Below, piece by piece: positions 1 to 57,271 of a DNA stretch of 57,271 bases. The stretch's first letter is position 1. Each line of letters begins with the position of its first letter. The notes beneath the pieces are model-generated. The model did no database searches and was not told the DNA's origin. It saw only the letters and a program-made list of their open reading frames with translations. Origin of the DNA: a virus. Location of the stretch: positions 1 to 57,271 of the IMG/VR virus record IMGVR_UViG_3300045918_000348. One strand, 5' to 3'. The position numbers were made by a program, and so were the translations under genes.

Positions 1-127
1 GGTTACCTGCAAGGTTCATGCCAATAGGTTACCTGCAAGGTTCATGCCAATAGGTTACCTGCAAGGTTCATGCCAATAGGTTACCTGCAAGGTTCATGCC
101 AATAGGTTACCTGCAAGGTTCATGCCA
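1..127. repeat. Left terminal repeat: 4.9 tandem copies of the 26-bp unit GGTTACCTGCAAGGTTCATGCCAATA; identical to 57145..57271
   Basis: Direct reading: units at 1, 27, 53, 79 and a truncated one at 105. The same 127 nt end the window. Confidence 0.95.
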
Positions 128-149
128 TCTTTATTTTTCTTTTCTCCCC

Positions 150-195
150 TGCAAGATTAATGTTTCCCATTAGTCAACCGATAAGATAGTATAAT
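150..195 (+). promoter_or_regulatory. Early promoter-like module E1 (AACCGATAAG box 176..185, TATAAT 190..195)
   Basis: Box plus -10-like hexamer 22 nt upstream of the ATG at 217. The same architecture recurs at four other sites. Confidence 0.5.
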
Positions 196-216
196 AATTA
201 ACAAAGGGGCTTTAAA

Positions 217-399
217 ATGAATAGCACAAGAGTTTTAAGATTAGTTGAACAGATTGAATATATGACTAATATGATGTTTCACGAGTTTTCACCAGAATTG
301 CACGCAAAAATGATTCTAGTACTGGACCGCAAAGCTAAGGCATCATTTCTTATTAATACGCTTACTAAAATTATAGACGATTTAGAGGCTACAAAATGA
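217..399 (+). CDS. hypothetical protein (60 aa)
   Basis: ORF with AAAGGGG SD-like sequence upstream; first gene after module E1. Confidence 0.6.
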   Translation: MNSTRVLRLVEQIEYMTNMMFHEFSPELHAKMILVLDRKAKASFLINTLTKIIDDLEATK

Positions 400-485
400 C
401 AAGACGTAACTTTACTATTGACAATGTGGCTCCCTTCATGATATTATTAGTTGTGGCCACTTTGTGGTTTACTTTATACGCTTAA
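396..485 (+). CDS. putative 29-aa membrane peptide
   Basis: ATGA overlap with the stop of 217..399. Hydrophobic core FMILLVVATLWFTLY. Below the length threshold of the ORF track. Confidence 0.3.
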   Translation: MTRRNFTIDNVAPFMILLVVATLWFTLYA

Positions 486-1132
486 CTTTGAGGCGGCATC
501 AAGTCTGCTTCAAAGTCTAAACCCTTCGGATTGGTCTTATTCCAACGTCTAATAACTTCAACCATATGGTGAATAATGTCGTGAATAATCTTTAGACTCC
601 TTCTATGGGGTTTAGGCAGTCGCTTTACAATGGCCCGCATTGGCACACCCTCAGCGTGCATCTTAATTGCCATCATATATATAGGTTTACTAGGCTTATA
701 TTGCTTAACGTGAGTCAACCAATTAGTCAATCGTCTATAATAAGTCTGTTTTTCAGTAGTAAAGCCTTTCGCAATGGCTGATAGGGACTTACAATTCATT
801 AGAGGCGAGAAGTCTTTGGCTTGCGAGTTCCATCGCTCAATATCTTCAAAGCCTTTAGACTTGAGTTTTGCGTACCATTGAGCCTGCAAGCTATACATTT
901 CAGCGCTTAATAACTTGATTGGAGCCTTTGAGGCTGCCTTTGGAGCCTTTGAGGCTGCCTTTGGAGCCTTTGAGGCTGCCTTTGGAGCCTTTGAGGCTGC
1001 CTTTGTGACTACTTTATGGTGTTTTCGTTTTAGTTTGATACGTTTGAGGGACTTTTTAGGTTTACTTTTAGGTTGATTGTGTGGAGGGATGTGGAACTGA
1101 ATTGGCCTTTTGGCCTGCATTACAAGTGTCAT
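482..1132 (-). CDS. Lys/Ala/Pro-rich repeat protein (histone H1-like AASKAPK x4) with a possible C-terminal HTH
   Basis: 216-aa ORF and the only minus-strand gene in the left arm. Basic N-terminus with 4 perfect heptad repeats. The C-terminal segment MAIKMHAEGVPMRAIVKRL looks like an HTH. Confidence 0.65.
   Translation of the reverse strand: MTLVMQAKRPIQFHIPPHNQPKSKPKKSLKRIKLKRKHHKVVTKAASKAPKAASKAPKAASKAPKAASKAPIKLLSAEMYSLQAQWYAKLKSKGFEDIERWNSQAKDFSPLMNCKSLSAIAKGFTTEKQTYYRRLTNWLTHVKQYKPSKPIYMMAIKMHAEGVPMRAIVKRLPKPHRRSLKIIHDIIHHMVEVIRRWNKTNPKGLDFEADLMPPQS
921..1004. repeat. 4 perfect tandem copies of the 21-bp unit GGAGCCTTTGAGGCTGCCTTT (encodes AASKAPK on the minus strand)
   Basis: Direct reading: units at 921, 942, 963 and 984. 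Confidence 0.95.
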
Positions 1133-1225
1133 AGCTGTTATACCTCATGATGGCTCGTTTACTTATGGTTAATCTATTATGGCCCATTTTAAGCCAATTG
1201 TCAAGCATAATTATTTTTAATTGAC

Positions 1226-1265
1226 CCTTAAGTTTCCTCCTAATCAACCGATAAGTCTATTGTAA
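1226..1265 (+). promoter_or_regulatory. Early promoter-like module E2 (CCTTAAGTTT ... AACCGATAAG 1246..1255 ... -10-like TATTGT/TTGTAA)
   Basis: Shares the conserved boxes of E1 and E3-E5. Lies about 26 nt upstream of an SD-ATG at 1291. Confidence 0.45.
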
Positions 1266-1290
1266 GTTAACATATCAAGGAGGTTCTCAA

Positions 1291-1383
1291 ATGACATACT
1301 ATATAGCATTTACAATAATCGTGGGCTCAATATGCTACATTTTGGCCGCATTTAGTTCCCTTTACGTATTGAGTCACTTATAA
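1291..1383 (+). CDS. putative 30-aa membrane peptide
   Basis: Strong SD (AAGGAGGT) 7 nt upstream. Hydrophobic sequence MTYYIAFTIIVGSICYILAAFSSLYVLSHL. Confidence 0.4.
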   Translation: MTYYIAFTIIVGSICYILAAFSSLYVLSHL

Positions 1384-1406
1384 GTGCTTTGAAGTTAGCA
1401 TTTTTG

Positions 1407-1430
1407 CCAGTTGGCCCCAAAAAATTTTAA
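1407..1430 (+). promoter_or_regulatory. CCAGTKGGCCC box plus A/T palindrome (copy a of 8)
   Basis: CCAGTTGGCCCCAAAAAATTTT. A 70-nt block containing it is duplicated at 2818..2890. Confidence 0.5.
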
Positions 1431-1447
1431 AAATAATTCGCTAGGGG

Positions 1448-1488
1448 CCTTAAGTTTTATTGAGCTGCAACCGATGAGATATTATAAG
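1448..1488 (+). promoter_or_regulatory. Early promoter-like module E3 (TTGAGC 1460..1465, 17-nt spacer containing AACCGATGAG, TATAAG 1483..1488)
   Basis: Sigma70-like spacing (17 nt). Near-identical to E5. Confidence 0.5.
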
Positions 1489-1520
1489 ATAAGTTGACAC
1501 TAACAACAAGGATTTATAAA

Positions 1521-7052: not shown

Positions 7053-8525
7053 ATGACCATAAAACCATCACTAACTCAATTTTGTCAATGGTATGTCTGG
7101 CTGCAAGATGAGGGCATATTTTACGATACCAGAATACACAGAGCTCGCTCTGAAACTCACATTATTAGTGAAATGCTCCAAATAGATTTTAACGGCAACG
7201 TTGCCGAAGTCATAAAGTCAATGAAAATGATGGGCACTAGTAGAGATAGTTTAAAAGATACCAAAAAACTAACAAAAAAACCAACAAAAGTGGACTTAAG
7301 TCGCCAACTTTACAATGAAGTTAAAAGTAGTTTGCCAGTGAGACTGCAAGTTATGCCCCCTGACTTACTTGTATATACTATCAATAAACAAAATGAAGTT
7401 TCCCTATTCTCAAAATTTGATAATCAGGTTTTAATTAAACTGCTATATGACCATCCAGAAGTGAACTCTATAATTAAAGTGGCACTAGAAAATTGTGACT
7501 TAGGGTCTAAGTTGGAGTACACCGATTACTTGCAACTATTAGCAAAACAAATTTCAGGTGACCATTCATTAAGTTTGCCTCGCAACATTCCATTAATAAG
7601 TTGGGACCCAAACATTGCAGCATATAAGTCTCTCGATGCTACGATTTTAAAAGATGGGCCCCATCCGACATGGGACCAATTTTTATCCCGCTTAGAGTAT
7701 CCAGAAACTTTTAAGGCTTATGTATGGTCTATATTTGACCCAAACAATTTTGGCCGTCAAGCTTTGTGGATACATGGTGAGGGTAATGATGGAAAAAGCA
7801 CAGTATTAAATACGTTAGCCGATTTTATGGGCCATGACCATGTTTTAGCCCTCTCAAAAGGTTCGTATGAAGGCGAATACTTTTTCGGGGCTGCTTTAGG
7901 GAAGCGTCTAGCCATCTACAATGACTGTAAAAACCCACACGTTATAAGGTCGGAGCGCATCAAAAGTTTACTAGGCGGCGACGTTGTTAGTGCAAACTCA
8001 AAATATATTCCAATTAAATCTGCAAAAGTTTACAGTAAGCTTTTATTTGGTGCAAACATGGTCCCGTCAATAAACTACAATGATAGAAGTGAACGCACAA
8101 GGCTACTACTCACTGCAGTAACGCCATATCCGAAAGCTACACAAGGAGATGCCAATTTTGGGCCCAATTTAAAAGCCGAGTTACCTCATTTTTTATTTTC
8201 CTGCAGGCAAACGTATGAAGTGGAATGCCCAACTGGTATGAACTTAAGAGTGCCACCAAAAATGGACGATACCATTAAGCAACTTTGTAATGCTTCTGAC
8301 AGTGACATAATTACAGACTTTATTAATAAGCACGTCGAAATGGGCTCAAAGTTTAAGGTTTCAAAAACAGACATGAGATATGCACTGAAAACATACTTAA
8401 GTGGGCAATTCATGACCAATAATCAAATGCAGTTTGCTGACCTAGACCTGCAGAAAACTCTACTTCAAATGGACATCATATTGGATGCTGGACACTATGT
8501 AGGATGCCAATTGAGACGTTTGTAG
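7053..8525 (+). CDS. SF3 helicase-like NTPase (P4/D5-type primase-helicase C-terminal domain)
   Basis: Walker A HGEGNDGKST, followed by KRLAIYNDC (Walker B-like). The layout is typical of D5/P4 family replicative NTPases. Confidence 0.65.
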   Translation: MTIKPSLTQFCQWYVWLQDEGIFYDTRIHRARSETHIISEMLQIDFNGNVAEVIKSMKMMGTSRDSLKDTKKLTKKPTKVDLSRQLYNEVKSSLPVRLQVMPPDLLVYTINKQNEVSLFSKFDNQVLIKLLYDHPEVNSIIKVALENCDLGSKLEYTDYLQLLAKQISGDHSLSLPRNIPLISWDPNIAAYKSLDATILKDGPHPTWDQFLSRLEYPETFKAYVWSIFDPNNFGRQALWIHGEGNDGKSTVLNTLADFMGHDHVLALSKGSYEGEYFFGAALGKRLAIYNDCKNPHVIRSERIKSLLGGDVVSANSKYIPIKSAKVYSKLLFGANMVPSINYNDRSERTRLLLTAVTPYPKATQGDANFGPNLKAELPHFLFSCRQTYEVECPTGMNLRVPPKMDDTIKQLCNASDSDIITDFINKHVEMGSKFKVSKTDMRYALKTYLSGQFMTNNQMQFADLDLQKTLLQMDIILDAGHYVGCQLRRL

Positions 8526-8813: not shown

Positions 8814-9011
8814 ATGAGAAGGCCGCAAAAACAAAAATGGTCGATGTCTGGGTCGTGGTCGGTGTCGGGGTCGGGGTCGTGGTCGGGGTCGAGGTCGGGG
8901 TCGTGGTCGAGGTCGTGGTCGGGGTCGAGGTCGAGGTCGGGGTCGTGGTCGTGGTCGGGGTCGGGGTCGTGGTCGGGGTCGTGGTCGGGGTCGAAGTCTA
9001 GGTCTACGTAA
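8814..9011 (+). CDS. (X-Ser)n dipeptide-repeat peptide 1 (65 aa; leader MRRPQKQKWS)
   Basis: Conserved GGAAGGTTTATAAATG SD-start and a 10-aa leader shared with two paralogs. Ser occupies every second residue from position 10 to 64; only the final residue (T or K) differs. Confidence 0.6.
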   Translation: MRRPQKQKWSMSGSWSVSGSGSWSGSRSGSWSRSWSGSRSRSGSWSWSGSGSWSGSWSGSKSRST

Positions 9012-9766: not shown

Positions 9767-10032
<266 letters not shown>

Positions 10033-10036
<4 letters not shown>

Positions 10037-11562: not shown

Positions 11563-11584
11563 GTTGCTTTTAAGTTACCTTTAT

Positions 11585-13930: not shown

Positions 13931-14782
13931 ATGGTTCAAACAGAGACAGAGACAGAGCGATTTCTAGCAACAATATTTGATGAAGGCCAAACAACATGCT
14001 TTACAGCAACTCCATATGGCCACGCTGTATCAAACTTTCCGAAATCAAAAGACCTTTTCTACTGCATAAATGCGCTTCATCCTTATCAAGATTTAAACCC
14101 AAGTGCTGAATGGCATAGTCCAACTACACCGAGAAGGGCTGATATTAATGTTATCTGTTTTAGAAACTTTCTCATTGAACTTGACCATATGCCTTTAAAT
14201 CAGCAAGTGGAGTACGTAACATCCAAATTACCAGTAACCTCAATTATATACTCAGGTGGCTCCTCTTACCACTTCATTATATCACTTGTAACTCCACTTT
14301 TAAACTATACTGAGTATATGAATTGGTCAAAACGTATCCACTTAATGGTTCCTGAAGCTGATAAAGCAACTAAAAATCCTTCTCGACTTAGTCGCTTACC
14401 AGATGTTATACGTCCTGATACAGATAAGATGCAAACTTTACATTACTTAGGAAGTAGAATAGATAATTTAGAATTGGCTACGAAACTACCTACCCTTGAT
14501 ACTATTAGTTTTTCAGGACCAATGAAAGCGGCCCATGCTACGCCACTAATACTAGCTGCAGCTCATGAACCTCAACAGATAATGGTTGAGCGAGGCTTAA
14601 AAGGGCGTAATCAGTTTTTTTACTGGCTAGGCTGCAGGATGGCTGATAGTCAATTGGACCCTGAGAAAAGACTTTATTTTGCAAGTGAAGCTTATAAAAA
14701 TTTACCCGATGTATCAGGATTCTCATTTGAGGAGGCACTAATGGCTGCTCGTATTCCTGCAGGAAAGATGGTATCAAGATGA
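13931..14782 (+). CDS. putative AEP-like primase / prim-pol
   Basis: Motifs resemble those of archaeo-eukaryotic primases: FLIELDH (motif I-like), YSGGSSYHFII (motif II-like, SxxGxxxH) and PSRLSRLPD (motif III-like). The ATG at 13931 follows TAGGAG. Confidence 0.4.
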   Translation: MVQTETETERFLATIFDEGQTTCFTATPYGHAVSNFPKSKDLFYCINALHPYQDLNPSAEWHSPTTPRRADINVICFRNFLIELDHMPLNQQVEYVTSKLPVTSIIYSGGSSYHFIISLVTPLLNYTEYMNWSKRIHLMVPEADKATKNPSRLSRLPDVIRPDTDKMQTLHYLGSRIDNLELATKLPTLDTISFSGPMKAAHATPLILAAAHEPQQIMVERGLKGRNQFFYWLGCRMADSQLDPEKRLYFASEAYKNLPDVSGFSFEEALMAARIPAGKMVSR

Positions 14783-17783: not shown

Positions 17784-19997
17784 GTGATTATTAAAAATCA
17801 AGAAGATTGTGAAAAACTTATTAAGTTTATTGAAGCCAATAAGCAGTTGGCCTTTGATACAGAGACCACCGGCATTAATCACCATACCGATAAAGTAATT
17901 GGTTTTGGTTTGGCCAATGATAGTGAGGGCCACTATGTTGTTCACTTGGCGTGGGACGGCTCTGAACTGCAGGAAGTTATTCCGCTTGAAACCTGCAAAT
18001 ATCTTTTATCCTTACTAAATAAGCATGAACTCATCACGCATAATGGCAGTTTTGACATGCGTATGACATTAAACTACTTTGGAGTTGACCTAATTAGTAA
18101 CATCTTCAGTGATAGCCAACTAGCTTACCATACTATAAATGAAACTGGAGTCCCTTTCAGCCATGCACCATTTAGTTTGAAAACCATCGGTGCCCATTTT
18201 TATGGTGACAGCGCAACTGATGAACAAGTTAAAATGAAAGCTTCTATTAAGGCCAATGGCGGCACCGCGCATGAATTTTTTAAAGCAGATTCGCAAGTCT
18301 TAGGCACCTATTGCGTGCAAGATTGTCTATTGACTTATAGACTAAATCACAAGTTTATGAATCAAATAGTTGATGAAGGTTTATGGAATTTCTACCAGTA
18401 TGATGAGGTAATGCCACTTTACCGGACCGTTACAATTCCAATGGAGCAAAGAGGTATACCTCTAGACGTCCCATTACTTGAAAAGGCCCAACTTGAAATT
18501 ACTGAAGATTTGGCAAAATTGGAATCCACTATCCTGCAGGAAATTGAACCTCAATTAGATTTGTTTAATGAGTGGTACCTTAATAAGGAGCATCCAGTTA
18601 GGACGACAGGCCCTTTTGTCCAACAACTTGCCAAGATGCTTAAAGTAAACTTACCACTTACACCTGCAGGACAATTCTCAATGGCTGCCCCGCATATCGC
18701 TAAGTTGCCACCAAACAATATGCTTAGAAAGTTTCTCGAAGGCAAATACAAGTTAGACCCACAAATGGTTAAACAAATTCAATTGAGCTTACAGGGTGGC
18801 CTTCAAATGTTTAACTTATCATCTAAAGACCACTTGAAACGGTTATTTTTCACTAAACTTAATGAGGAACCGAAAAATAGAACGGATAAAGGTGCTCCTC
18901 AAGTTGATGAAGAGTTTCTTGACACTATGGTTTCTAAACATCCTTGGGTTTCTAAACTAATTGAGTTTAATAAATTGACAAAATTGAAAGGGACATACAT
19001 TGACCGTTTCTTAGAAAAACAGTTAAATGGACGGTACTACCCTCAATTTTTCCAGCACCGAACTGTGAGTGGACGTTATGGTTCTGACCTGCAGCAATTA
19101 CCTAGACCTATCAAGGATAACGGCAATATCGTATCAAAATATAATAACTTAGTGAGACGATTTTTCAGTCAAGTTGATGGAAGGGTTTTTGTTGATGCTG
19201 ATTATGAGTCGCTTGAGCCAAAGATATTTAGTCATGTTTGTGGAGATGAAAAGTTGCAGCAAATATTCCTTAATGGTGACGATTTTTACTCGACTATTGC
19301 AATCATGACTGAAGGGATACCAAATGTTAGTGCAAACAAGAAAGCACCGAATTATTTGGGGCTAGTTAATCCTGCAGCTAGACAAACAGCAAAAGCTTAT
19401 AGCCTTGGGGTGCCGTATGGATTAACGGGATATAAAATGCAGTTTGAGTTGGGTTGCAGTCAAGAGGAAGGTGACCGCTTAGTGGCAAACTATTTGGCAG
19501 CCTTCCCAGCACTTGCCCAGTGGATGGAAAATTCTGAACTTGCTGCAGTTGAACAAGGTCAAGTATCATCCCTAGCGGGTCGTATTCGCCATATGCCTAG
19601 AGCTGCAAAATTAGTTGAACAATATGGAATGGAACTTTTAGATAGTTTACTGCTATGGAAAAAGTACCACGAAAATCCACCGTTATATGAGCAAATGAAG
19701 AAGCATCGTCGGGAGCTTAAAAACTACCTAAACAATGCTAAGAACTTCCAAATCCAAAGCTTTGCAGCCTCAATAGTTAATCAGGCCTCAGTGCAAATTA
19801 ATAAGCAGCTTATAGACGCGGGTCTAGATGCCCATATCTGCTGCAATATACATGACCAACTTATTTTGGACTCAAGTGAAAAAGATGCTGGACAATCGGC
19901 TCAAATAATGCAACAATGTATGGAGCACATCAAGAAGTTAACTATACCTCTAGTTGCAGTACCTAAAATTGGCAAAAACTTTTACGAAACTCACTAA
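17784..19997 (+). CDS. family A DNA polymerase with a 3'-5' exonuclease domain
   Basis: Exo I FDTETTG, Exo II HNGSFD, Exo III YCVQDC. Pol motif A DADYESLEP, motif B RQTAKAYSLGVPYG, motif C IHDQLIL. GTG start. Confidence 0.95.
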   Translation: MIIKNQEDCEKLIKFIEANKQLAFDTETTGINHHTDKVIGFGLANDSEGHYVVHLAWDGSELQEVIPLETCKYLLSLLNKHELITHNGSFDMRMTLNYFGVDLISNIFSDSQLAYHTINETGVPFSHAPFSLKTIGAHFYGDSATDEQVKMKASIKANGGTAHEFFKADSQVLGTYCVQDCLLTYRLNHKFMNQIVDEGLWNFYQYDEVMPLYRTVTIPMEQRGIPLDVPLLEKAQLEITEDLAKLESTILQEIEPQLDLFNEWYLNKEHPVRTTGPFVQQLAKMLKVNLPLTPAGQFSMAAPHIAKLPPNNMLRKFLEGKYKLDPQMVKQIQLSLQGGLQMFNLSSKDHLKRLFFTKLNEEPKNRTDKGAPQVDEEFLDTMVSKHPWVSKLIEFNKLTKLKGTYIDRFLEKQLNGRYYPQFFQHRTVSGRYGSDLQQLPRPIKDNGNIVSKYNNLVRRFFSQVDGRVFVDADYESLEPKIFSHVCGDEKLQQIFLNGDDFYSTIAIMTEGIPNVSANKKAPNYLGLVNPAARQTAKAYSLGVPYGLTGYKMQFELGCSQEEGDRLVANYLAAFPALAQWMENSELAAVEQGQVSSLAGRIRHMPRAAKLVEQYGMELLDSLLLWKKYHENPPLYEQMKKHRRELKNYLNNAKNFQIQSFAASIVNQASVQINKQLIDAGLDAHICCNIHDQLILDSSEKDAGQSAQIMQQCMEHIKKLTIPLVAVPKIGKNFYETH

Positions 19998-22295: not shown

Positions 22296-22737
22296 TTGTA
22301 ACAACAAGTGAATGGCCCTCGTCTGAGGGCCGTTTACAGCTACTCAAGTCGGTAATGAAACGGTCATCCATATTCAAGTTATCACAGCCTGCAGGAGATT
22401 GGGCTCCAAAAAACTTCGGTAAAAAAAAGCAATCAATTATAGATTTTTCCCAGTTTGATTGGTCAATTGTTTTTGAACTTACTAGGCCCTGCTTATTAAA
22501 ATAAAGTTGTGCAGGATAGTTAGCCACTAAATCTACTTTATAAGCATGTTTTGTGGGGTCAAAATGTTCTCGAAGCTGCTTAAATTGAGCTTTATATTCC
22601 TCGGTGTCTAATAGGTGAAATACACTGCAGGTCCAGTCTTGGGCCTTATTTGTTTTGAAGCGGCCCCCTTGTCGGGTTCCATATGTACTGTTTATTGATA
22701 GTGGGCCAATGCCCATTAATTTGAAAGTAAACTGCAC
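22255..22737 (-). CDS. rusA: RusA-like Holliday junction resolvase
   Basis: GPLSINSTY (compare PPSNNRYY), IDQSNWEKSIIDCF (compare DLDNLQKAAFDAL) and DDRFITDL ... LVVTITV (compare DDAQVV ... LELTIT). Confidence 0.62.
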   Translation of the reverse strand: MQFTFKLMGIGPLSINSTYGTRQGGRFKTNKAQDWTCSVFHLLDTEEYKAQFKQLREHFDPTKHAYKVDLVANYPAQLYFNKQGLVSSKTIDQSNWEKSIIDCFFLPKFFGAQSPAGCDNLNMDDRFITDLSSCKRPSDEGHSLVVTITVVDLLRSQRPL

Positions 22738-23232: not shown

Positions 23233-23718
23233 TTAACCTTTCAATTCCTTTTGTAATTTTGCCATACATTGTACAGGTGCAGACATTCCATAATAGTGCC
23301 CCGTTAAGAAACCCAATGCTTCACAGCAAAAGTACTTAGACGGCGACTCATATTTATTTATAAGTGGTAGTTTAATTCCTAAAAAAGTTAAACCAATTCG
23401 ATATGCTAGGTAAAATACTCCAGGATAATCGTAAGGCTTACCATTAATTTCTCTATATTTATCTGCAATTTTCTGATATTCGATTTCCTGCAGGAAAACA
23501 CGACCTACTTCGGTATGCTCTTGTTGCCATTTATCATAACTTAATACTTGAACTCCAGTTTTACCCGTAGACTCATGTACCCAGCGTTCATTTACAAGTA
23601 AAGCTGTGTGACTTGGTGTTGGTTTAATTTGTGGCTCTAAGTGTGTAGACCCTAGGGAAATTACTTGTGCACCTATTTTTGAGCTTAAACTGAAAAGAGC
23701 ATGCACCGTGACATTCAC
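23233..23718 (-). CDS. putative permuted papain-like (YiiX/C92-type) cell-wall amidase
   Basis: An early His (PSHTALLV) and a late KYFCCEALGFL (compare YCSELV). Lies in the lysis neighbourhood. Confidence 0.4.
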   Translation of the reverse strand: MNVTVHALFSLSSKIGAQVISLGSTHLEPQIKPTPSHTALLVNERWVHESTGKTGVQVLSYDKWQQEHTEVGRVFLQEIEYQKIADKYREINGKPYDYPGVFYLAYRIGLTFLGIKLPLINKYESPSKYFCCEALGFLTGHYYGMSAPVQCMAKLQKELKG

Positions 23719-28685: not shown

Positions 28686-31457
28686 TTAATTTATAACAAA
28701 AAACCCAACAGATGTTTCTGCTGTTGCTGCAGCCGCTAAGTTAATTGTAAATGACCCAGCAGCAGGTACTACATTTTTTATTTGTGCAGTTGTATCATTC
28801 GTTCTAACTTCGCAAAAAACTAAACTAGCTCCAGTTACAATTGAATTTGTCACCACTAGAGATGTTGCGGCTGCGGCAAAATTGACAGTTCCAGAAACTT
28901 TATTAATTGTTTGTGCACCTGTAGTGCCACCTGCAGTCACAGTTGTAGGAACTGTAACTTTATTAACATCAATTATTAGGTTACCTCTAGTTGTGCTAGC
29001 AGTACCACTTGTCAAATTAATATGTCCTGATGTACCACCTGCAGCATTACCAGATGCAATTGTAATATTGCCCGTTGTAGTTCCACCTGTTCCTGTAGCT
29101 ATAGAAAGTGCACCTGAATCTGCATTTGTAGATGCGCCAGTTATAACTTGAACAAGTCCTGAAGCATTTGATGTACCAGTAGCCGTTCCTGAATTTACTG
29201 TTACGGTTCCTGATGCGGCACTTGCTGCTGAACTATTTCCAGATTTTATAATTGTTGCACCTGAAGCTGCAGTACTTGTTGAGACATTTCCTCCTGAGCC
29301 AACTGTGACTGTTCCAGTTCCACCTAAACCTGCAGCAAAAGTGCCTCCAGACTCAAATCGTAAATTTCCTGAAGCAACGTCAGAAGTTTGTCCACTAAAT
29401 ATATTTATAGTTCCAGATGCCCTAGACGCACCACCTGACCCTGATAAAATTAAAACTGCTCCAGATGTAGCAGAAGATGAAGTACCACTAGTAATATTTA
29501 CTGCTCCACCAGCACCTGTTCCACTTGCTCCACCCGTAAGTACAACGGCTCCAGCAGTTGCAGATGCTGACCCTGGAATAATACTTACTGCACCTGAATT
29601 TCCTGCAGAAGCATTTCCTGAACTAACTATAATTGTTCCAGTACCTTGACCAGCGCCAGTTTTTACTGTAATGTTACCAGAAGCATTTGATGCTGCAGTT
29701 CCAGTAGCAATGTCCAAAGTACCAGATGAATTTGCCCCACTTGCAATACCAGATTTAAGTATAACTGCACCACTTTGACTTGCAGTTGCAGATGTGTGGT
29801 CTCCCGACTGTATAGTTAATGTACCAGTTGCATTTGTAGGAGCGGTAGTTGATGAGTTATTACCACTTGTAATTAAAACTGCTCCAGAAGTACCTGCACC
29901 ACTTCCACTTTTTGCTCCAGTAGAAAGTGTTGTTGCACCTGTAGCTAAGTTTGCACTTGAAGATGATGAACCTGTAGAGAGGGTTAACGCTCCAGTATTT
30001 GCTGTCTGAGTTCCTGTTTTTGCGCCCGTTGAAATGGATACGTTTCCAGTTGCTCCACCTGTAGCTGTACCTGTTAATAATAAAAAACTTCCAGTAGTTG
30101 CAGTGGATGTAGCTGCGGTAGCTGAACCCGTAACAATGTTTACTCCACCTGAAGAACCAGTTGAAGATGCTGCAGTGCGGGCCCCTGAAGTAATCGTAAT
30201 TGTCCCAGTAGCCGTTGCACTTGCTGCATCTGATGCTCCTGATTGAACTGTAATGGCACCAGAAGTATTAGTAACTGTAGAAACATCTCCAGTTTTAAGT
30301 GCCAAATCATTTGTTGCAGCAGCAGCACTATCTTGAGTTTTTACATGTGCAGTCGCTTTATTAAAAATAAGGTCACTGTTGATAGCCGTTGTTGATAAGT
30401 TGGCTAAATCGTATGTAGCATATGAACCACTTGCCTGTTTACCATTTAACTGAGTTTGAATAGCACTTGTAACTCCACTAACAAAATCAAGTTCTGCAGC
30501 AGTTGTAGTTGCGGCTACTGGAATGCCATTTGCGTCAGAAGCAATGGCTTTTGAGACCGCGATTGCTGCAGCTTCTACGATTGCCCCACCACTTGATTTT
30601 AGTACACGATTATTGCTAAGGGCCGTTCCACTGTTGGTTCCACCTTTACTTATAGGTAAAGTTGTGATTGAAGGTTCTTTGCCATTAAGTTGAGTTTGAA
30701 TTGCACTCGTAACACCATTAACGTATCCAATCTCAGTATCAGTTGTCGTAGAAACATCAATTTTACCACTAGCATTTGAAATAACTGCTCGAGATACATT
30801 TAAATTTGCAGATAAAATTGTAGACGCAGCACCACCAACAGCATCCTGCTTTGTGGCAAGTGCATCATACACAGCATTTTGACTTGGAGCAACATCAACT
30901 ATACCATTTACAAGTGAGTCTGCAACTGCTGCAGTTTTAGCGCGACTATCAGTAAAGTACTTATTGGTTGTACCTTCAGCTATATCATCAGTTGACAGTG
31001 AGATGACTCCACTTTGTCCATTTACACTTACAACTTCATTAGAGTTTATTGAACGTTCCCAAGTAGTACCATTATAAACGGCCCAATCGGCAAGTGAGAA
31101 TGAAATAGAACCTGAACCTAAGTTTTGAGTTCCAGCAGTGGCAACATTATAAACATCACCTGCTGAAAATGAACCACCATCGGCCAAAGTTGGAGTATTA
31201 GTAGATGCGTTCCAGTTTCCGAGGAAGCTCATAATTGAGTTTGGAAGTTGGGTTGCTGGAACTTTTCCACCAGCGTCTAATGTAGCCACACCACTATTGG
31301 CACCTTTTTCAGTGAGAGCAATTTTATTAGTATCTAATTCATTTAATGCGGTTTGAACATCTGTTGCAGCTATATTTCCTGCAGGCACATTTGATACTTG
31401 ACTTGCCGTTGATGCACCACTACCACCAGATGCTTGAGGAAAAGTAAAAGTACTCAT
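28686..31457 (-). CDS. large tail fibre / spike protein (923 aa, Ser/Thr/Ala/Gly-rich repeats)
   Basis: Repeated TSAIQTQLNGK segments and a long low-complexity (S/T/A/G)n region. The antisense frames are also open. Confidence 0.75.
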   Translation of the reverse strand: MSTFTFPQASGGSGASTASQVSNVPAGNIAATDVQTALNELDTNKIALTEKGANSGVATLDAGGKVPATQLPNSIMSFLGNWNASTNTPTLADGGSFSAGDVYNVATAGTQNLGSGSISFSLADWAVYNGTTWERSINSNEVVSVNGQSGVISLSTDDIAEGTTNKYFTDSRAKTAAVADSLVNGIVDVAPSQNAVYDALATKQDAVGGAASTILSANLNVSRAVISNASGKIDVSTTTDTEIGYVNGVTSAIQTQLNGKEPSITTLPISKGGTNSGTALSNNRVLKSSGGAIVEAAAIAVSKAIASDANGIPVAATTTAAELDFVSGVTSAIQTQLNGKQASGSYATYDLANLSTTAINSDLIFNKATAHVKTQDSAAAATNDLALKTGDVSTVTNTSGAITVQSGASDAASATATGTITITSGARTAASSTGSSGGVNIVTGSATAATSTATTGSFLLLTGTATGGATGNVSISTGAKTGTQTANTGALTLSTGSSSSSANLATGATTLSTGAKSGSGAGTSGAVLITSGNNSSTTAPTNATGTLTIQSGDHTSATASQSGAVILKSGIASGANSSGTLDIATGTAASNASGNITVKTGAGQGTGTIIVSSGNASAGNSGAVSIIPGSASATAGAVVLTGGASGTGAGGAVNITSGTSSSATSGAVLILSGSGGASRASGTINIFSGQTSDVASGNLRFESGGTFAAGLGGTGTVTVGSGGNVSTSTAASGATIIKSGNSSAASAASGTVTVNSGTATGTSNASGLVQVITGASTNADSGALSIATGTGGTTTGNITIASGNAAGGTSGHINLTSGTASTTRGNLIIDVNKVTVPTTVTAGGTTGAQTINKVSGTVNFAAAATSLVVTNSIVTGASLVFCEVRTNDTTAQIKNVVPAAGSFTINLAAAATAETSVGFFVIN

Positions 31458-42716: not shown

Positions 42717-43034
42717 TTAAAATACCCATAAATCAACTGTTACTTGGTTACTAGCCTGCAGGATAAGTAGCTTTTTTTCAAGTGGGTTAGTTTCCTGCAA
42801 GTCCCAAATATCTGCAGCTCCACGCTTCCTAATTATAATCCACCCTACAGGGGCGTCTTCTAGTCCGTGAGATATCGTTGTAGGACTGGTGTTTATTGTT
42901 ATATTTTTAACCAAGTTGCCCTGCACAATATGGGAACCAGTTAGAGGGTCAATAGCCAAATGTATATTTTCCTGCAACTTCATCAAGTTGGCATCCTGAA
43001 ATGCCATTTTTTTAAGATTTCTCGGTGCAGCCAT
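42717..43034 (-). CDS. structural protein (105 aa)
   Basis: ORF in the structural operon. Confidence 0.6.
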   Translation of the reverse strand: MAAPRNLKKMAFQDANLMKLQENIHLAIDPLTGSHIVQGNLVKNITINTSPTTISHGLEDAPVGWIIIRKRGAADIWDLQETNPLEKKLLILQASNQVTVDLWVF

Positions 43035-48397: not shown

Positions 48398-50269
48398 TTA
48401 CTGAACAGGAGCCTGTTGTGGAGCGGCTTGTTGTGGTTGCTGTTCATCTTCTTCTGGTGCAGGAGTCTGTTGTGCTAATTGTTCAGAAGCCATTTGTTGC
48501 ATTTGTAGTGCTTGTTCTTGTTGTTGACGGCCTTGGTCAATAACTGAACGCTGCATCAAAGCATTTGCATCTTCAACCCAACGACGAATTAATTCTAAAC
48601 GCGATTCTGGAGCATTTTCCGACCTAAATAGAAGGTATGCTTGTTGCATCTTCTTGATACCGCCACCCAAATCTTGATAAGGTTCTGGTGTAGTATACTC
48701 TCCATGCTCAATTATCTTTTCAATTACCATATTAATATCTTCACCTGCAGCAGTTTCAAATTGGTAGAAGCCTTGTAAGTCAGGAAAATCAAGAAGCTTC
48801 AAAGCATCTTCGCGACTTACGAAACCTGCTTGAATAAGTTCTTGTATATCTTGTAATTTTCCTGCGGGACTAGCAGAGAGTGCCGAAGATGGAAATAGAG
48901 ACATTATATATTGGTCTTTATCAAGAGAAACATCTTTCCACTTGATAGTTTCCATAAATTTCTTGCCCTTAACTTTAATAGAATATTTTCCATCCATATC
49001 ACTATCAATTTCTTTTGCAAGTTCGATAAAGTGTTCAGCAGCATCTAAAAAAGTGCGTTCATATCGTTGAGCATTAGACATAAAGCGTTCAGTTTCAAGG
49101 TCATTATATTCGCGAATGGCTTTACCACTATCAAGGCCTGCAGGCTTAGCAGCATTTGCAGTTAATTGACTGATGCCAATAATTTCATATGCACGTTGAT
49201 AGAGACGGTCTAAGTGGCTGAAAAGTTCCGTAGGAATGGTTCCAAGTTGACCTGGAGTTGGCACTTGACCACTATATTTTATAATTCCACCGATACGGTT
49301 ATCTAGGTGAGAATCAACAATTTTACTCGATGCCTCAACAAATATTTTAGGTACACTTATCAAGTGCATAGACACTTGTATAGTTTTTAGAATTTTATTA
49401 ATTTCTAATTGCAGGCCAGTGAGCTGCTCACTAATACCTTGACCAAAAAATCCAAGGGGTCGTGTATTCCATCTGAAAAATATAAATGGGAATTTATCTG
49501 CATTATATTCTTCTCTAAATAAAGTTGTATTATTGATGGTAATGGCATGTACTCCATCTTTAGCTTCTGAGGCCGACGGTAAGTGCCAACTCTCAATAAC
49601 TAAAATCATATCAGATGATTGTCCACCTGCAGAACTATAGTAGGTAGTAGTGTCATGAGCCGCCATATCAATTGCAAGCGCATCTTTCGGAAACATTTCC
49701 TTCAATACATCTTTATGAATAAATTTCTTTTGGTGCATTTGGCGAGGCTCACCATAAAAGCTCTCTCTATCATCAACAATAACTTCATCAATAAAAACGC
49801 GCTCAACTTTAATATTAACGCCATCTTTAAATATTTTTAGGCACCCTGTTCCGAATATGCAGGCATCTTGGAACGCCACAGTTGCTTTATCATAAAATTT
49901 AGTAGCTTGAAACTGACCTTCAACAAACTGGCTTAACTTTTTAGCAACTCTTTGTTGCATGAAGTTTCCACCCTCAGTTAAAAAGGTAGGCTTTGGTCTA
50001 TTTTTACCTATCTTAGAAACTGCGGTGTCAACCATACTTTGAATTATATTCATTGTTACTCGGTTTTGAATAGAGTTTAGGGGCTCCGAACGCTGATACT
50101 GGTATGACCGCAAGTTAGCCAAATCATAGTTTCCATACAACTTCATGTGCTTAAAATTATCATTTTGTCTATAGGCTTGGTCTTGGTCTAGATATTTAAG
50201 ATAAGAAAAAACGGATTGATGAACTTCTTTCTCATCATCTTTCCACCAGTAATACTGCTTATTGTCCAC
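48398..50269 (-). CDS. portal protein
   Basis: 623 aa, upstream of the scaffold and capsid genes, with a Gln/Pro-rich C-terminal tail. GTG start. Confidence 0.7.
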   Translation of the reverse strand: MDNKQYYWWKDDEKEVHQSVFSYLKYLDQDQAYRQNDNFKHMKLYGNYDLANLRSYQYQRSEPLNSIQNRVTMNIIQSMVDTAVSKIGKNRPKPTFLTEGGNFMQQRVAKKLSQFVEGQFQATKFYDKATVAFQDACIFGTGCLKIFKDGVNIKVERVFIDEVIVDDRESFYGEPRQMHQKKFIHKDVLKEMFPKDALAIDMAAHDTTTYYSSAGGQSSDMILVIESWHLPSASEAKDGVHAITINNTTLFREEYNADKFPFIFFRWNTRPLGFFGQGISEQLTGLQLEINKILKTIQVSMHLISVPKIFVEASSKIVDSHLDNRIGGIIKYSGQVPTPGQLGTIPTELFSHLDRLYQRAYEIIGISQLTANAAKPAGLDSGKAIREYNDLETERFMSNAQRYERTFLDAAEHFIELAKEIDSDMDGKYSIKVKGKKFMETIKWKDVSLDKDQYIMSLFPSSALSASPAGKLQDIQELIQAGFVSREDALKLLDFPDLQGFYQFETAAGEDINMVIEKIIEHGEYTTPEPYQDLGGGIKKMQQAYLLFRSENAPESRLELIRRWVEDANALMQRSVIDQGRQQQEQALQMQQMASEQLAQQTPAPEEDEQQPQQAAPQQAPVQ

Positions 50270-50826: not shown

Positions 50827-52656
50827 TTAATCAAAATCCTCTTTAAGTAGAAACTCAGTTTCTTCTTTAGAGGCTTCAAGTCCTTTGGGGCGCTGCGCTT
50901 CAGCAAGCTCCTTTGCAAACTCATCTTCTAGTTGTAGCATATATTCTAAAGTATCGCGGTGGTTAGGTGCTTGGGAAGCTTCCGATTGATAGTGGCGACA
51001 CTCACGCCAAGCGTACAAAATCGCATCACAGTTATGTACTAATATGCCATTTGCAAAATATTCATGAGGACCATTAATTTTGATATTATAAACGTCTTCT
51101 TTTTTGGTTAGTATTTCTCGTGTTACAAGAACGAGAGCAGAATTTTTGTTTATTGAATCCCATTCGCATATATTAGCACATCTATCCAAATCTGTCAAGT
51201 CTTCTGCAGCAATAAATCCACGATTATATGTATATATTGGGTGATTTCCTGTACATACTATACTCACCCCACTACTGAAAGTAAGCCTCATCACTTCTTT
51301 ATTACTACCTGTTTTAGCAGTCCATTCTAATGGAAAGTATCCGCTTCTAGTTAATATTAAATCATTAGTATTTAGGTGTTCTATTGGTTTTGGACCATTG
51401 GCTGTGGTTATTAATGTTCCAGCAATAAAGCAGCTATCTGAGTGGTAGCTATCAGAAATTTTTAATTGACTAGAGTTGCGGTCCCACTCCACAAGGTTAC
51501 AGTCTTCTTCAAAACGGCTACCTTCATAGGCCATTAATTTTCCGGTTCTAAGGTCATCGTTTAAAAGTGTGATAAATTCAAATTTACGTTTCTTATCTGC
51601 AGCTTCAATGTTTAAACTATGACGTTGTTGGATTTCCGATTGGATTTTTTTACCCAATGCGCCAGCATCCATGACCATCTTGACTGGCTGGTATTTTTCT
51701 TGTAGGTTCTTGATAGCATCTACGAGGGACGTAATGTCTTGCTTATTTTTTATCCACTCTTCAACTAAATAAACTTTCTTTTCGGTATAATTATAACCAA
51801 GTACGGCAATGGCATCACTATCATTGAAACCTATGTCGATACCAAAGATATAAACCATTTTTCCTGCAGGCAGAGAAGAGAATAGATTTTTTACAGGGTC
51901 AAACTTGAAAACAAGTGCTTCAATATCTTTTGCCCATTGTCCATAAAATTCTCGCTGTATTGAAGGGTCTTGTTTAGACACTCCCCGTCTTTGACACGTT
52001 TCTTGTATAATTAATTCTGGGTCCTTGTTACTTTTAAGTATGATGTGAGGATTATTGTGCATTGTCCAGTGATGGTGACTCCAACCTTTACTGTGACTTG
52101 CAGTATAAAATAATCCTGCAGGAATAGGGCCAGGAGTACCGATAAGGGCAAGTGACCCATCATAATCTATTAAAGTTGGTTCAATAACGTCTTGAATAAA
52201 ATCTTTTAAATACTCGCGAAAACTTTGTGCTTCATCTATATAGACTTTTCTTAAGGCAACACCCCGCCACTTATCTGCATCGGACTCATCTTTGGCTCCT
52301 GATACATATATAACATTTTTATTGGGTAGTGTAATGGTTAAATCAGTATTGTCTAGGTGAACATCAATGTTAAACTTTTCACAAGTCTCTAAAAGCTGTC
52401 GCCAAATAATACGCTTAGCTGTACGACGGTTCAAAGTAATATAGGCTACATCTCCAGGCAGCGTTAGGGCTGTATAAAGTAAGTCAAAAGCGCAGCCTGT
52501 AGATTTTCCACTTCGACGAGATGTAACTGCGGTTTTGAATTTGGCCGTATCCTGAATGAACTTTAACTGTTCTGGAAAACATACATCTTCAAGCGCAAAT
52601 AGTTGTTTCTGCGCCCTCTTCTGTAATTGTGCGGCAATCTTTTTACTGATAGTCAC
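50827..52656 (-). CDS. terL: terminase large subunit, interrupted by a mini-intein
   Basis: Walker A SRRSGKST, Walker B-like KVYIDEAQ, and nuclease motifs GIDIGF and HSDS//CDAILYAW, the latter split by the intein. GTG start. Confidence 0.85.
   Translation of the reverse strand: MTISKKIAAQLQKRAQKQLFALEDVCFPEQLKFIQDTAKFKTAVTSRRSGKSTGCAFDLLYTALTLPGDVAYITLNRRTAKRIIWRQLLETCEKFNIDVHLDNTDLTITLPNKNVIYVSGAKDESDADKWRGVALRKVYIDEAQSFREYLKDFIQDVIEPTLIDYDGSLALIGTPGPIPAGLFYTASHSKGWSHHHWTMHNNPHIILKSNKDPELIIQETCQRRGVSKQDPSIQREFYGQWAKDIEALVFKFDPVKNLFSSLPAGKMVYIFGIDIGFNDSDAIAVLGYNYTEKKVYLVEEWIKNKQDITSLVDAIKNLQEKYQPVKMVMDAGALGKKIQSEIQQRHSLNIEAADKKRKFEFITLLNDDLRTGKLMAYEGSRFEEDCNLVEWDRNSSQLKISDSYHSDSCFIAGTLITTANGPKPIEHLNTNDLILTRSGYFPLEWTAKTGSNKEVMRLTFSSGVSIVCTGNHPIYTYNRGFIAAEDLTDLDRCANICEWDSINKNSALVLVTREILTKKEDVYNIKINGPHEYFANGILVHNCDAILYAWRECRHYQSEASQAPNHRDTLEYMLQLEDEFAKELAEAQRPKGLEASKEETEFLLKEDFD
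51031..51432 (-). mobile_element. mini-intein (134 aa, residues 409-542 of TerL), no homing endonuclease domain
   Basis: Starts with Cys in CFIAGTLITT (block A-like) and ends in GILVHN followed by a +1 Cys. Removing it joins YHSDS to CDAILYAW. Confidence 0.8.
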
Positions 52657-54487: not shown

Positions 54488-54595
54488 TTTTAGGCTCCTT
54501 TTCTTGTTTTTAGGTATGTTTTAGTTGGGGCCACTTTTAGGCTCCTTTTCTTGTTTTTAGGTATGTTTTAGTTGGGGCCACTTTTAGGCTCCTTC
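54484..54595. repeat. 47-bp tandem repeat, 2.4 copies
   Basis: The unit CCACTTTTAGGCTCCTTTTCTTGTTTTTAGGTATGTTTTAGTTGGGG begins at 54484, 54531 and 54578. On the minus strand each copy carries AAGGAGCCTAAAAGTGG. Confidence 0.9.
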
Positions 54596-55687: not shown

Positions 55688-55760
55688 GGAGCCTCTTAGT
55701 GTCGTTTTCGTTGCTTACGTTGCTGATAAGGGACTTTTGTTTAGGGTCCTTTTAGGTTCC

Positions 55761-55800
55761 TGTTAAGGACTGTTAGGTAATTGTTAAGTAACTGTTAGGT
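55761..55800. promoter_or_regulatory. four phased direct repeats TGTTARGK (spacing 10, 11, 11 bp)
   Basis: TGTTAAGG at 55761, TGTTAGGT at 55771, TGTTAAGT at 55782 and TGTTAGGT at 55793. They lie 74-113 bp upstream of the late-operon start codon. Confidence 0.6.
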
Positions 55801-55850
55801 GGCCTAAAATTGCAACAGTTGTTGATGTCGCCGTTGCCGATAATCTGAAC

Positions 55851-55941
55851 TGCAGGACTACGGGGCTGAAAACTTTCCCATAAAACACTGTGCCTGTGTC
55901 GGACACATTTTTTAAAAATATATAATAAGTAAATAAAGAGG
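55851..55941 (-). promoter_or_regulatory. 91-bp regulatory cassette, copy B (inverted partner of 6908..6998), with palindrome TGTGTC-G-GACACA at 55895..55907
   Basis: The reverse complement aligns with 6908..6998 at roughly 80% identity, including two perfect blocks of 35 and 23 nt. Confidence 0.7.
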
Positions 55942-56260
55942 ATAGAAGAGGAGCGCCTTGTGTCTCAAGTGTAGCCTCAACAGTGTGTCTCAAACGCAAA
56001 AATACTATAGGAATTGACTACTTTTTGGTGAAATGACTAAGGAAAAACGCCTCGGGAAGACACACACAGTGTTTGTGGGGAAGTTTTGGCGTCTATGAAA
56101 CCGCCAACCTATTAATTTTGTTGATGAAAATTTTCAGTCACTTTTTCAGTTTTTCAATTTCCTCTAGTTTTGAGGCGTTTTTTAGGGAAATGAGACACCA
56201 AACTAAATTTTATGGTCTAAATTCAATAGGGAATTTTATAGGTTTTATTTATTAATATTG

Positions 56261-56289
56261 TTGACATGTCTTGTGTCTTATGGTAGACT
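56261..56289 (+). promoter_or_regulatory. sigma70-like promoter (TTGACA, 17 nt, TAGACT) with a TGTGTCT site in the spacer
   Basis: -35 at 56261..56266, -10 at 56284..56289, 17-nt spacer containing CTTGTGTCTTA. Confidence 0.55.
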
Positions 56290-56345
56290 TATAGTGTACC
56301 CTAACTATGGGGTAACTTAACGATAACCTTTAGGAGGGGTAAAGT

Positions 56346-56471
56346 ATGTTTCTGATTGTTCTACTTACAACTATCATACCAGCTATTACGGTAATGGTTG
56401 GTATGTACCTTATGTCTGCAGAAAAGGCTAATAGTAAGGATACCGCTTTAAACGAACAGGAAGGAGTCTAG
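56346..56471 (+). CDS. putative 41-aa membrane peptide
   Basis: AGGAGGGG SD upstream. Hydrophobic FLIVLLTTIIPAITVMVGMYLM. The stop lies next to the following ATG. Confidence 0.45.
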   Translation: MFLIVLLTTIIPAITVMVGMYLMSAEKANSKDTALNEQEGV

Positions 56472-56472
56472 A

Positions 56473-56829
56473 ATGGGCGCTAATAGAAAACCCAAGGACC
56501 CAACAGCCCGATGGCTCAAACGACCGTCTAGGGCTAAGCCAAAGCCTGTAGATAAGTTTAAATACCTTCCAGAGATTCTTACGGACATAGAAAAGGAAGC
56601 ATTAGCCCACTTCATACAAAACAATAGTTATACTTATGTGGCTGAGATGATAGGTAGGTCTATCCACACAGTTACAACTTATATCATGCCAAGTATACGA
56701 AAGAAGGTAAAGAAGCCCACAAAGAAAGCATTATATTTATGGGCACTGGAGTTGGCATATATCCAGAAGTTGACGATTGATAAGAATATACTTATAAAAG
56801 GATTAGGTCCAACTTTTGGAGAATCATGA
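56473..56829 (+). CDS. putative LuxR/GerE-type (sigma70 region 4-like) HTH regulator
   Basis: TDIEKEALAHFIQNNSYTYVAEMIGRSIHTVTTYIMPSIRKKV resembles the GerE HTH pattern. GAAGGAG SD upstream. Confidence 0.5.
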   Translation: MGANRKPKDPTARWLKRPSRAKPKPVDKFKYLPEILTDIEKEALAHFIQNNSYTYVAEMIGRSIHTVTTYIMPSIRKKVKKPTKKALYLWALELAYIQKLTIDKNILIKGLGPTFGES

Positions 56830-56841
56830 GGGGCCTTGGTT

Positions 56842-56871
56842 CCAGTTGGCCCTGAAAAAATTTTTTGTGGG
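56842..56871 (+). promoter_or_regulatory. CCAGTKGGCCC box (copy f)
   Basis: CCAGTTGGCCCTGAAAAAATTTTTTGTGGGG, directly after the regulator gene. Confidence 0.5.
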
Positions 56872-56980
56872 GTCCGTTTTTAGGCCACCCCCTAAAATTT
56901 GGAACAGCTATTATAATGTATAAAGTGGATATGAAAACCCCTTACACCCACCACCCCGTCTCAATATGAGGCATCCTCCT

Positions 56981-57112
56981 TGGCACGCTTCTTGCACTCT
57001 CTGCAATTAACGTACCAATTAGGTTGGCATGCTTCTTGCTTACGTTCCTAGTACGAGCCTGAGTGGCACGCTTCTTGCACTCTCTGCAATTAACGTACCA
57101 ATTAGGTTGGCA
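56981..57112. repeat. two 49-bp direct repeats (56981..57029 and 57064..57112), degenerate relatives of the terminal 26-mer
   Basis: TGGCACGCTTCTTGCACTCTCTGCAATTAACGTACCAATTAGGTTGGCA occurs twice. GGCAYGCTTCTTGC occurs four times. Confidence 0.9.
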
Positions 57113-57144
57113 CGCTTCTTGCATTTGCAATTATGATGCCAATA

Positions 57145-57271
57145 GGTTACCTGCAAGGTTCATGCCAATAGGTTACCTGCAAGGTTCATGCCAATAGGTT
57201 ACCTGCAAGGTTCATGCCAATAGGTTACCTGCAAGGTTCATGCCAATAGGTTACCTGCAAGGTTCATGCCA
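57145..57271. repeat. Right terminal repeat, identical to 1..127
   Basis: Direct reading. Confidence 0.95.

Follow-up and report, generated by a model that had tools for sequence, protein, structure and literature searches.

The 57,271-nt viral sequence IMGVR_UViG_3300045918_000348 of IMG/VR, analysed here over its whole length (the window), is a complete tailed-phage genome in which the palindromic hexamer CTGCAG is over-represented, an excess that is real and holds up statistically. What is enriched is the 5-mer CTGCA, whichever strand it is read on; CTGCAG is its self-overlap, without synergy between the two halves of the dyad. The excess arises almost wholly through the choice of synonymous codons and of bases in non-coding DNA, and it is restricted to a sub-lineage of the phage family. 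We tentatively ascribe it to a strand-symmetric pressure on DNA, linked to the host lineage and acting at synonymous and non-coding sites.

Over-representation of CTGCAG

An exact count gives 88 copies of CTGCAG, or one per 651 bp, in agreement with the approximate figures (about 88, one per ~650 bp) of an earlier sequence-only reading of the same DNA. The G+C content of the genome is 38.3%, base composition alone predicts 7.3 copies, and at this zero order CTGCAG is the most over-represented hexamer of the genome. The excess declines as the null model is tightened, from ~12-fold over base composition to 7-fold over dinucleotide shuffles (12.5 +/- 3.5 copies, with a maximum of 21 in 100 shuffles), 2.7-fold over a shuffle of synonymous codons, 2.1-fold over the strictest coding-aware null described below, and 1.06-fold over a Markov model of order 4 (82.8 copies expected). 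Markov models of order 2 and 3 predict 18.5 and 44.8 copies, respectively; the third-order comparison, which had been proposed as a check on the excess, thus leaves it in place (z-score 6.4). The words CTGCAA and TTGCAG, also noticed earlier as frequent, occur 67 and 71 times.

The octamer CCTGCAGG, for which at least 11 positions had been listed, occurs exactly 11 times, and one of these positions is 31378 instead of 31377:

8200..8207
14756..14763
18533..18540, within the PolA gene
18663..18670, within the PolA gene
22388..22395
23487..23494
31378..31385
42755..42762
49137..49144, within the portal gene
51863..51870, within the terminase gene
52115..52122, within the terminase gene

Base composition predicts 0.27 copies of this octamer, dinucleotide shuffles 0.68, and a Markov model of order 6 predicts 9.2. 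The excess of 10- to 30-fold that had been claimed holds against base composition but not against coding-aware nulls, which leave 2.1- to 2.7-fold for the hexamer and 3- to 6-fold for the octamer. More generally, a raw palindrome excess of that size can drop to two- or three-fold, and to another word (here a pentamer), when the null is constrained by coding. Literature searches on over-represented CTGCAG or TGCA found nothing relevant.

For the coding-aware nulls, 89 open reading frames (ORFs) covering ~93% of the genome were called, and randomization was done inside genes. Shuffling the order of codons yields 30.4 +/- 4.9 copies of CTGCAG, and shuffling synonymous codons yields 33.2 +/- 4.7, with 88 reached in none of 500 shuffles (z ~11.4-11.7); the closeness of the two expectations indicates no adaptation at the level of amino acids. 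In the strictest null, third bases were permuted among codons with the same first two bases and the same following base, so that the protein and all dinucleotides, codon junctions included, are preserved. The expectation is then 39.2 +/- 5.0 against 83 coding sites (z 8.7). Most of the raw 12-fold figure is thus due to codon usage, and the two- to three-fold remainder is robust. Since it persists with the protein, codon usage and all dinucleotides held fixed, the excess does act at the DNA level, as had been proposed.

It may be asked whether amino-acid composition, codon usage, avoidance of CpG at codon junctions, or codon-pair bias could generate the word as a coding artefact. Codon usage does lift the expectation from 7.3 to 30-39 copies. 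GCA is the top alanine codon, NCT codons and codons starting with G are common, and the phase built from these preferred codons, NCT-GCA-GNN, holds 63 of the 83 coding sites (76%). CpG is depleted (rho 0.62), with TG/CA (1.16) and GC (1.26) in excess, although these dinucleotide biases explain only a 1.75-fold rise of CTGCAG, and 2.1-fold is left when every dinucleotide and the first two bases of each codon are fixed. Moreover, the fold excess is larger in the two minor phases, which are enriched 3- to 10-fold, than in the major one:

NCT-GCA-GNN: 63 sites, against 26 (synonymous null) and 32.1 (strict null)
CTG-CAG: 13 sites, against 1.25 (synonymous null) and 4.6 (strict null)
NNC-TGC-AGN: 7 sites, against 1.25 (synonymous null) and 2.5 (strict null)

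CTG is the rarest leucine codon (65 of 1554), and 23 of these 65 codons stand before glutamine CAR; 13 of the 90 Leu-Gln pairs are spelled CTGCAG. In the major phase, 63 of 129 [Ala/Thr/Pro/Ser]-Ala-G contexts are spelled NCT-GCA-G. On the sense strand both orientations are enriched, as seen from the 7-mers CCTGCAG (28 vs 5.6 expected) and CTGCAGG (27 vs 7.6), and a signal at the mRNA level is therefore unlikely. Finally, the 4.7 kb of non-coding DNA contain 23 copies of the pentamer against 5.2 expected and 5 of the hexamer against 0.6. The occurrence of sites in all codon phases and in intergenic DNA, noted earlier by eye, is thus accompanied by enrichment of every phase, of both orientations and of the non-coding DNA. 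The four nulls, together with the phase, orientation and non-coding analyses, largely refute a coding artefact, which we regard as very improbable.

A few alanine-rich genes as the source of the excess are ruled out as well, because CTGCAG is present in 39 of the 89 genes, with at most 12 sites in one of them. This richest gene, which also has the highest density (4.3 per kb), is

28686..31457, (-): tail-protein gene, 12 copies of CTGCAG

Two of the five non-coding sites lie in 11563-12084, a 0.5-kb stretch that may contain an unannotated gene; it has no confident ORF, only overlapping candidates of ~97 aa or less, and no Rfam match. A separate codon-pair preference was observed for Ala-Leu as GCC-CTT (27 vs 6.5 expected), mostly preceded by an A-ending codon (AGCCCT, 23 vs 3.7); unlike CTGCAG, it is restricted to one reading phase.

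The enriched unit

Counted on both strands, CTGCA/TGCAG ranks first among the pentamers of the genome, with 409 copies against 224.9 expected (z 15.6). Over positions 1..57271 the (+) strand carries 204 copies and the (-) strand 205, of which 88 overlap as CTGCAG; over coding-aware nulls the excess of the pentamer is 1.3- to 1.8-fold. When TGCA sites are sorted by their flanks and compared with the synonymous null, the enrichment is seen to depend on each flank:

TGCA with neither C nor G flank: 184 vs 175, 1.05-fold
TGCA with left C only: 106 vs 75, 1.4-fold
TGCA with right G only: 117 vs 74, 1.6-fold
TGCA with both flanks: 88 vs 33, 2.66-fold

The two flanks are independent of each other (odds ratio 1.31, Fisher p 0.16). 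The fourth-order Markov expectation of 82.8 is close to the observed 88, and CTGCAG is therefore fully predicted by its two pentamers. In other words, CTGCAG owes its frequency to the fact that a palindrome bears the pentamer twice, once per strand, and not to any favouring of dyad symmetry. The suggestion that the palindrome itself is the selected unit is contradicted by these data.

Beyond the hexamer the flanks are near the null, with C at position -1 in 34% of sites vs 26% and G at +1 in 31% vs 19%. A longer dispersed repeat carrying CTGCAG is ruled out by the little information in these flanks. The same values speak against an uptake-type signal, an asymmetric motif of 9-12 nt that is informative over its whole length, which had been among the functions suggested.

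The distribution of the word along the genome and between strands shows neither regular spacing nor clustering in the gap analysis. Gaps between CTGCAG sites are exponential, or Poisson-like (coefficient of variation 1.02, Kolmogorov-Smirnov p 0.41), and enrichment is seen in nearly all 4-kb bins. The non-palindromic copies of the pentamer are equally divided by orientation (116 vs 117), and each 6-kb bin is enriched in the one orientation as well as the other. The proposed check of spacing, strand and frame thus gave Poisson-like gaps with both strands and all phases enriched.

Avoided palindromes and GGGCCC

Apart from CTGCAG, the genome is heavily purged of palindromes, in accordance with the earlier remark that this excess runs counter to the depletion usual in phages. 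GATC is absent (0 vs 147-200 expected, 147 being the value under the synonymous null), and the following palindromes are missing or rare relative to the same null:

CAGCTG: 0 vs 21
CCGG: 7 vs 45
TTCGAA: 1 vs 9.5
ATCGAT: 2 vs 11.8
GAATTC: 2 vs 11.7
ATGCAT: 4 vs 13

Beyond GATC, CAGCTG and CCGG, about 25 palindromic hexamers are depleted, among them the other four listed here and ACCGGT. Non-palindromic words such as GGCAG/CTGCC and CTGCCG are depleted too. The absence of GATC and CAGCTG, together with the depleted palindromes, forms a strong restriction-avoidance fingerprint that could aid in finding the host.

Among the 64 palindromic hexamers, the only strong excesses are those of CTGCAG (z 11.4) and GGGCCC (z 7.8). 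The latter is likewise rich in G+C and shows the same behaviour as CTGCAG. It occurs 14 times against ~4 expected, is enriched in all three codon phases (4, 5 and 3 copies vs 0.6-0.7), and is built on GGGCC/GGCCC, present at 2.2-fold; the inner GGCC occurs 171 times vs 110. The GGGCCC sites are located at

4038, 4180, 7656, 8160, 8543, 11590, 13153
27504, 30179, 32382, 33645, 39428, 39916, 55271

The motif CCAGTGGGCCCNAAANTTTTT, found at or near three gene boundaries of the early block (8543, 11590 and 13153), may be promoter- or terminator-like.

The purge could in principle have produced the excess as a by-product, if the removal of GATC, CAGCTG, CCGG and the like steered synonymous choice toward CTGCAG. 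The pattern at alanine codons would agree with this, as CAGCTG (GCA-GCT-G) is absent and its mirror GCT-GCA-G is common, and NCA-GCT-G occurs 0 times. However, sites at Leu-Gln and Cys-Ser/Arg pairs cannot come about in this way, and a synonymous randomization that forbids 20 depleted palindromes gives 31.8 +/- 6.0 copies of CTGCAG, similar to the unconstrained shuffle and far from 88. For the 20 palindromes simulated the by-product is thus refuted, and we consider this origin of the excess scarcely credible.

The 26-bp array and a palindromic binding site

The window begins and ends with the same 127 nt, which represent the overlap of a circular assembly and lie inside a 26-bp tandem array:

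1..127, (+): 26-bp tandem array GGTTACCTGCAAGGTTCATGCCAATA with core CCTGCAAGG, 4.9 copies
57136..57271, (+): same array, opposite end of the window, 5.2 copies

Because the two ends are one 127-nt overlap, the two terminal arrays are really one array of ~5 copies. Thus CCTGCAAGG is indeed the core of the terminal 26-bp repeat, as had been stated, with the correction that the two ends are the same array. The region 56981-57271 plus 1-216 is a repeat-rich divergent intergenic region with the array across the circular junction, and it also has an 83-bp direct repeat at 56981-57039 and 57064-57122. The region is a candidate origin of replication, or else a regulatory one. A 62-aa ORF at 56942-57130 is probably spurious.

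CTGCAG or CCTGCAGG might be the palindromic recognition site of a dimeric protein, either a host methyltransferase of the PstI/SbfI type or a phage protein related to a binder of the CCTGCAAGG iterons with a role in condensation, replication or partition. Under the synonymous shuffle the enrichment climbs with the length of the palindrome (1.4-fold for TGCA, 2.7-fold for CTGCAG and 6-fold for CCTGCAGG), the array has a CCTGCA core too, and the hexamer is tolerated in a genome purged of ~25 other palindromes. In addition, genes for C5 DNA methyltransferases occur in the same module of two relatives (L084, 5605-6399, and L086, 14031-14849).

Several observations are at variance with such a site. 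Its half-sites show no synergy, only the CCTGCA/CTGCAA part of the iteron is enriched outside the array while the remainder is not dispersed in the genome, and the sites show Poisson-like spacing with no clustering in regulatory regions. Only 3 of 136 aligned site pairs match in relatives, at a divergence where synonymous sites are saturated. The proposal of a dispersed protein-binding site consequently finds no backing in the iteron sub-words, the spacing or the positions of the sites. As for proteins, a Pfam, PHROGs and NCBIfam scan of ~50 of the 89 ORFs, which included all early-block ORFs of 200 aa or more and left ~35 small ORFs outside, detected no DNA methyltransferase, restriction enzyme, helix-turn-helix protein or recognizable site-specific DNA-binding protein. 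The idea of a modification target accordingly lacks a modification enzyme among the ORFs scanned; moreover, methylation alone offers no known reason to add sites. A palindromic recognition site is, in our judgement, decidedly unlikely.

Relatives and host

The phage is a member of a large family of metagenomic phages that measure 54-60 kb. About 140 loci were collected via the capsid protein and the polymerase, and the z-score of CTGCAG was compared in the 41 loci with a length of 12 kb or more. The family divides into a GATC-free group, in which GGCC is present and TGCA slightly raised, and a GGCC-free group, in which GATC is present; this split suggests two host groups with different restriction systems. 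In the relatives, CTGCAG ranges from absent (with 4-8 copies expected) to mild excess, and the loci with zero copies include L026-L031, L041/42, L069/70, L085 and L086. Among ~50 relatives a weaker version of the excess is found only in the closest one by PolA (L081, 55% identity), which has 17 copies of CTGCAG vs 7.0, no GATC, 85 copies of GGCC vs 53 and 121 of TGCA vs 90, the same trio as in the window. At the level of pentamers, CTGCA ranks 1-5 in five GATC-free relatives (1.3- to 1.6-fold), and not so in the others. The largest excess of any palindrome in the 41 relatives has a z-score of 6.3. Whether the word is gained, tolerated or purged therefore differs between lineages, which is what a host-dependent pressure would lead one to expect. 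The sole other copy of the phage itself (L036) is 100% identical to the window.

The only taxonomic label found for the family comes from a relative with 59% identity in the major capsid protein (L037, CAZZDD010000022.1), a 36.9-kb contig in a metagenome-assembled genome that bears the label Candidatus Peribacteria, where this phage contig was probably placed by mis-binning. Neither nucleotide nor major-capsid-protein comparison matched any of 50,697 isolate phages, and searches with the terminase, portal and primase returned distant matches only, with no close cultured relative; none of these searches identified a host. Cluster look-ups gave no taxonomy. The PolA protein shares 38% identity with its counterpart in a Flavobacterium phage, and this phage has no CTGCAG bias. 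A strong ribosome-binding site AAGGAG precedes 58 of the 89 genes, which argues against a Bacteroidota host.

Interpretation of the excess

The reading that we favour, though only tentatively, is that a weak directional pressure on DNA, tied to the host lineage of the phage, raised the frequency of CTGCA/TGCAG. The pressure could consist in mutation or repair biased by sequence context, or in weak selection for density of the word, and CTGCAG would be tolerated because the current hosts have no PstI-type restriction enzyme. The pentamer unit without synergy, the graded enrichment, the Poisson-like spread and the lack of orientation bias fit a pressure better than discrete sites, and so do the confinement of the changes to synonymous and non-coding positions and the restriction to a lineage, with a weaker copy in the closest relative. 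We are inclined, with similar caution, not to read the excess as a collection of discrete functional sites or as a palindromic binding site: individual sites would have no function, and the host environment would be the source of the pressure. Inheritance of the bias from the host, as had been suggested, is possible, and the host chromosome would then be predicted to show the same bias. If the bias mirrors that of the host chromosome, it would be a cheap and specific marker for host prediction in a large uncultured family of ~55-kb phages.

Three points weigh against this reading. The CTGCAG z-scores of the 41 relatives have a median of 0.2 and a maximum of 3.7 (3.8 over ~50 relatives), while a 22-kb segment of the window has 39 copies vs 12.4 (z 7.5); the window is so far above its relatives that a bias shared by a host clade is insufficient alone. 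About 63 copies of the one-step neighbours are missing vs 184 extra pentamers, a depletion too small for any known simple mutational route. Finally, the excess overrides codon preference, as seen with the rarest leucine codon CTG, and this could reflect real selection for the word.

Such selection is a possibility that we rate as unlikely. The reader of CTGCA/TGCAG, on whichever strand the word lies, would then be a nuclease of the host, a defence system or a DNA-binding protein of the phage, and the density of the word would protect or organize the phage chromosome, as a non-oriented Chi-like or "self-marking" pentamer that may be linked to the CCTGCAAGG iterons. If the word is selected, the phage would be one of the few to accumulate a palindrome of the restriction type, and a new nuclease-modulating or DNA-organizing system would be indicated.

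Organization of the genome

The (+) block contains small early genes and replication genes, and the (-) block structural genes:

7053-8525, (+): P4-type primase/helicase
15118-15939, (+): RecE-like exonuclease
17784-19997, (+): family-A DNA polymerase (PolA)
45971-47188, (-): major capsid protein
48398-50269, (-): SU10/P22-type portal
50827-52656, (-): large terminase, with matches to Hint/intein-splicing domains that suggest an intein

Four predicted proteins are unusual in a phage:

2428-2808, (+): SET-domain (protein lysine methyltransferase-like) protein
12695-13063, (+): collagen-repeat protein
24227-24796, (-): SPRY-domain protein
44031-45446, (-): Ice_binding-domain protein amid the head genes

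Three paralogous short ORFs (8814-9011, 9543-9740 and 9767-10036, all on the (+) strand) share the leader MRRPQKQKWS followed by (Ser-X)n. They are encoded by arrays of the hexamer (GGTCGN)n, whose other frame gives (Val-X)n, and one such (Val-X)n forms the N-terminus of an S8 subtilase-like peptidase (9790-10755, (+)); an S8 peptidase is also present in relatives. This arrangement looks like repeated precursor peptides beside a protease. Between late-block genes, 54478-54594 is a 47-bp tandem repeat of 2.5 copies that are 98% identical. Rfam gave no matches.

Comparison with known systems

The phenomenon has a functional parallel in Chi, the word that modulates RecBCD. In phages that rely on RecBCD (LLS, P1 and Rec-minus lambdoid phages; PMC12315714, PMC3784561), a host-specific word is the top over-represented k-mer, its excess of 2- to 2.5-fold lies inside genes and is independent of codon usage, and near-variants are frequent too. 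A Chi-like asymmetric word for a host nuclease of the RecBCD/AddAB type, or for another nuclease, is the most attractive functional alternative to the host-linked pressure: both orientations might have accumulated to blunt degradation from DNA ends or to recruit host recombination. The enriched unit is indeed a short asymmetric word, a 5-mer that acts independently on each strand, and the ratio of observed to expected copies (1.6-2.7 over composition-aware nulls) is similar in size to that of Chi in E. coli and Salmonella, 2.3-2.4 (PMC3784561). CTGCAG is the top hexamer here, just as Chi ranks first in frequency among the octamers of phages LLS and P1 (PMC12315714), and the trait is lineage-specific, as a host-specific motif would be. 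However, Chi is oriented and terminally clustered, with 20 of 23 sites of LLS in one orientation and the sites clustered at one end (PMC12315714), whereas the word in our genome is evenly spread and unoriented, symmetric in each 6-kb bin. Moreover, the polarity by which Chi is defined would be lost in a word that is commonest as a palindrome, and phages with their own recombination module, such as the RecE-type exonuclease found here, are mostly without Chi. We therefore hold the Chi-like alternative to be unlikely.

Repair offers another parallel. Very-short-patch repair of E. coli over-represents the target words of Dcm/Vsr; under biased repair of this kind, a short methylation target can become more frequent in every frame, through action on the DNA itself. 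As a candidate for CTGCAG this type of repair fails because the neighbours that deamination would produce are not depleted as predicted: CTGTAG/CTACAG occur 25 times vs 34 (ratio 0.73, z -1.8), and TTGCAG/CTGCAA are enriched 1.77-fold (138 vs 78). A further difference is that PstI-type methylation is on adenine.

The HIP1 word GCGATCGC and the uptake signal sequences (USS/DUS) resemble our case in being frame-independent, genome-wide excesses of a short word with about one copy per kb, and they are shared between host and phage. They differ in being words of 8-12 nt that stand far above their sub-words and one-mismatch variants, whereas here a pentamer predicts the hexamer and the octamer. In addition, HIP1 has a GATC core, and GATC is absent from this genome, where the excess over coding-aware nulls is just two- to three-fold. 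With no all-or-none octamer and little added by flanks past the hexamer, the analogy with HIP1 that had been drawn for this phage does not hold.

Finally, the palindrome profiles that differ by lineage within the family described here recall the host-like genome signatures and the restriction avoidance (for avoidance, PMC6286503) that have been studied in phages. These studies deal mostly with depletion; a restriction-type palindrome as the top hexamer of an otherwise purged genome is unusual among them.

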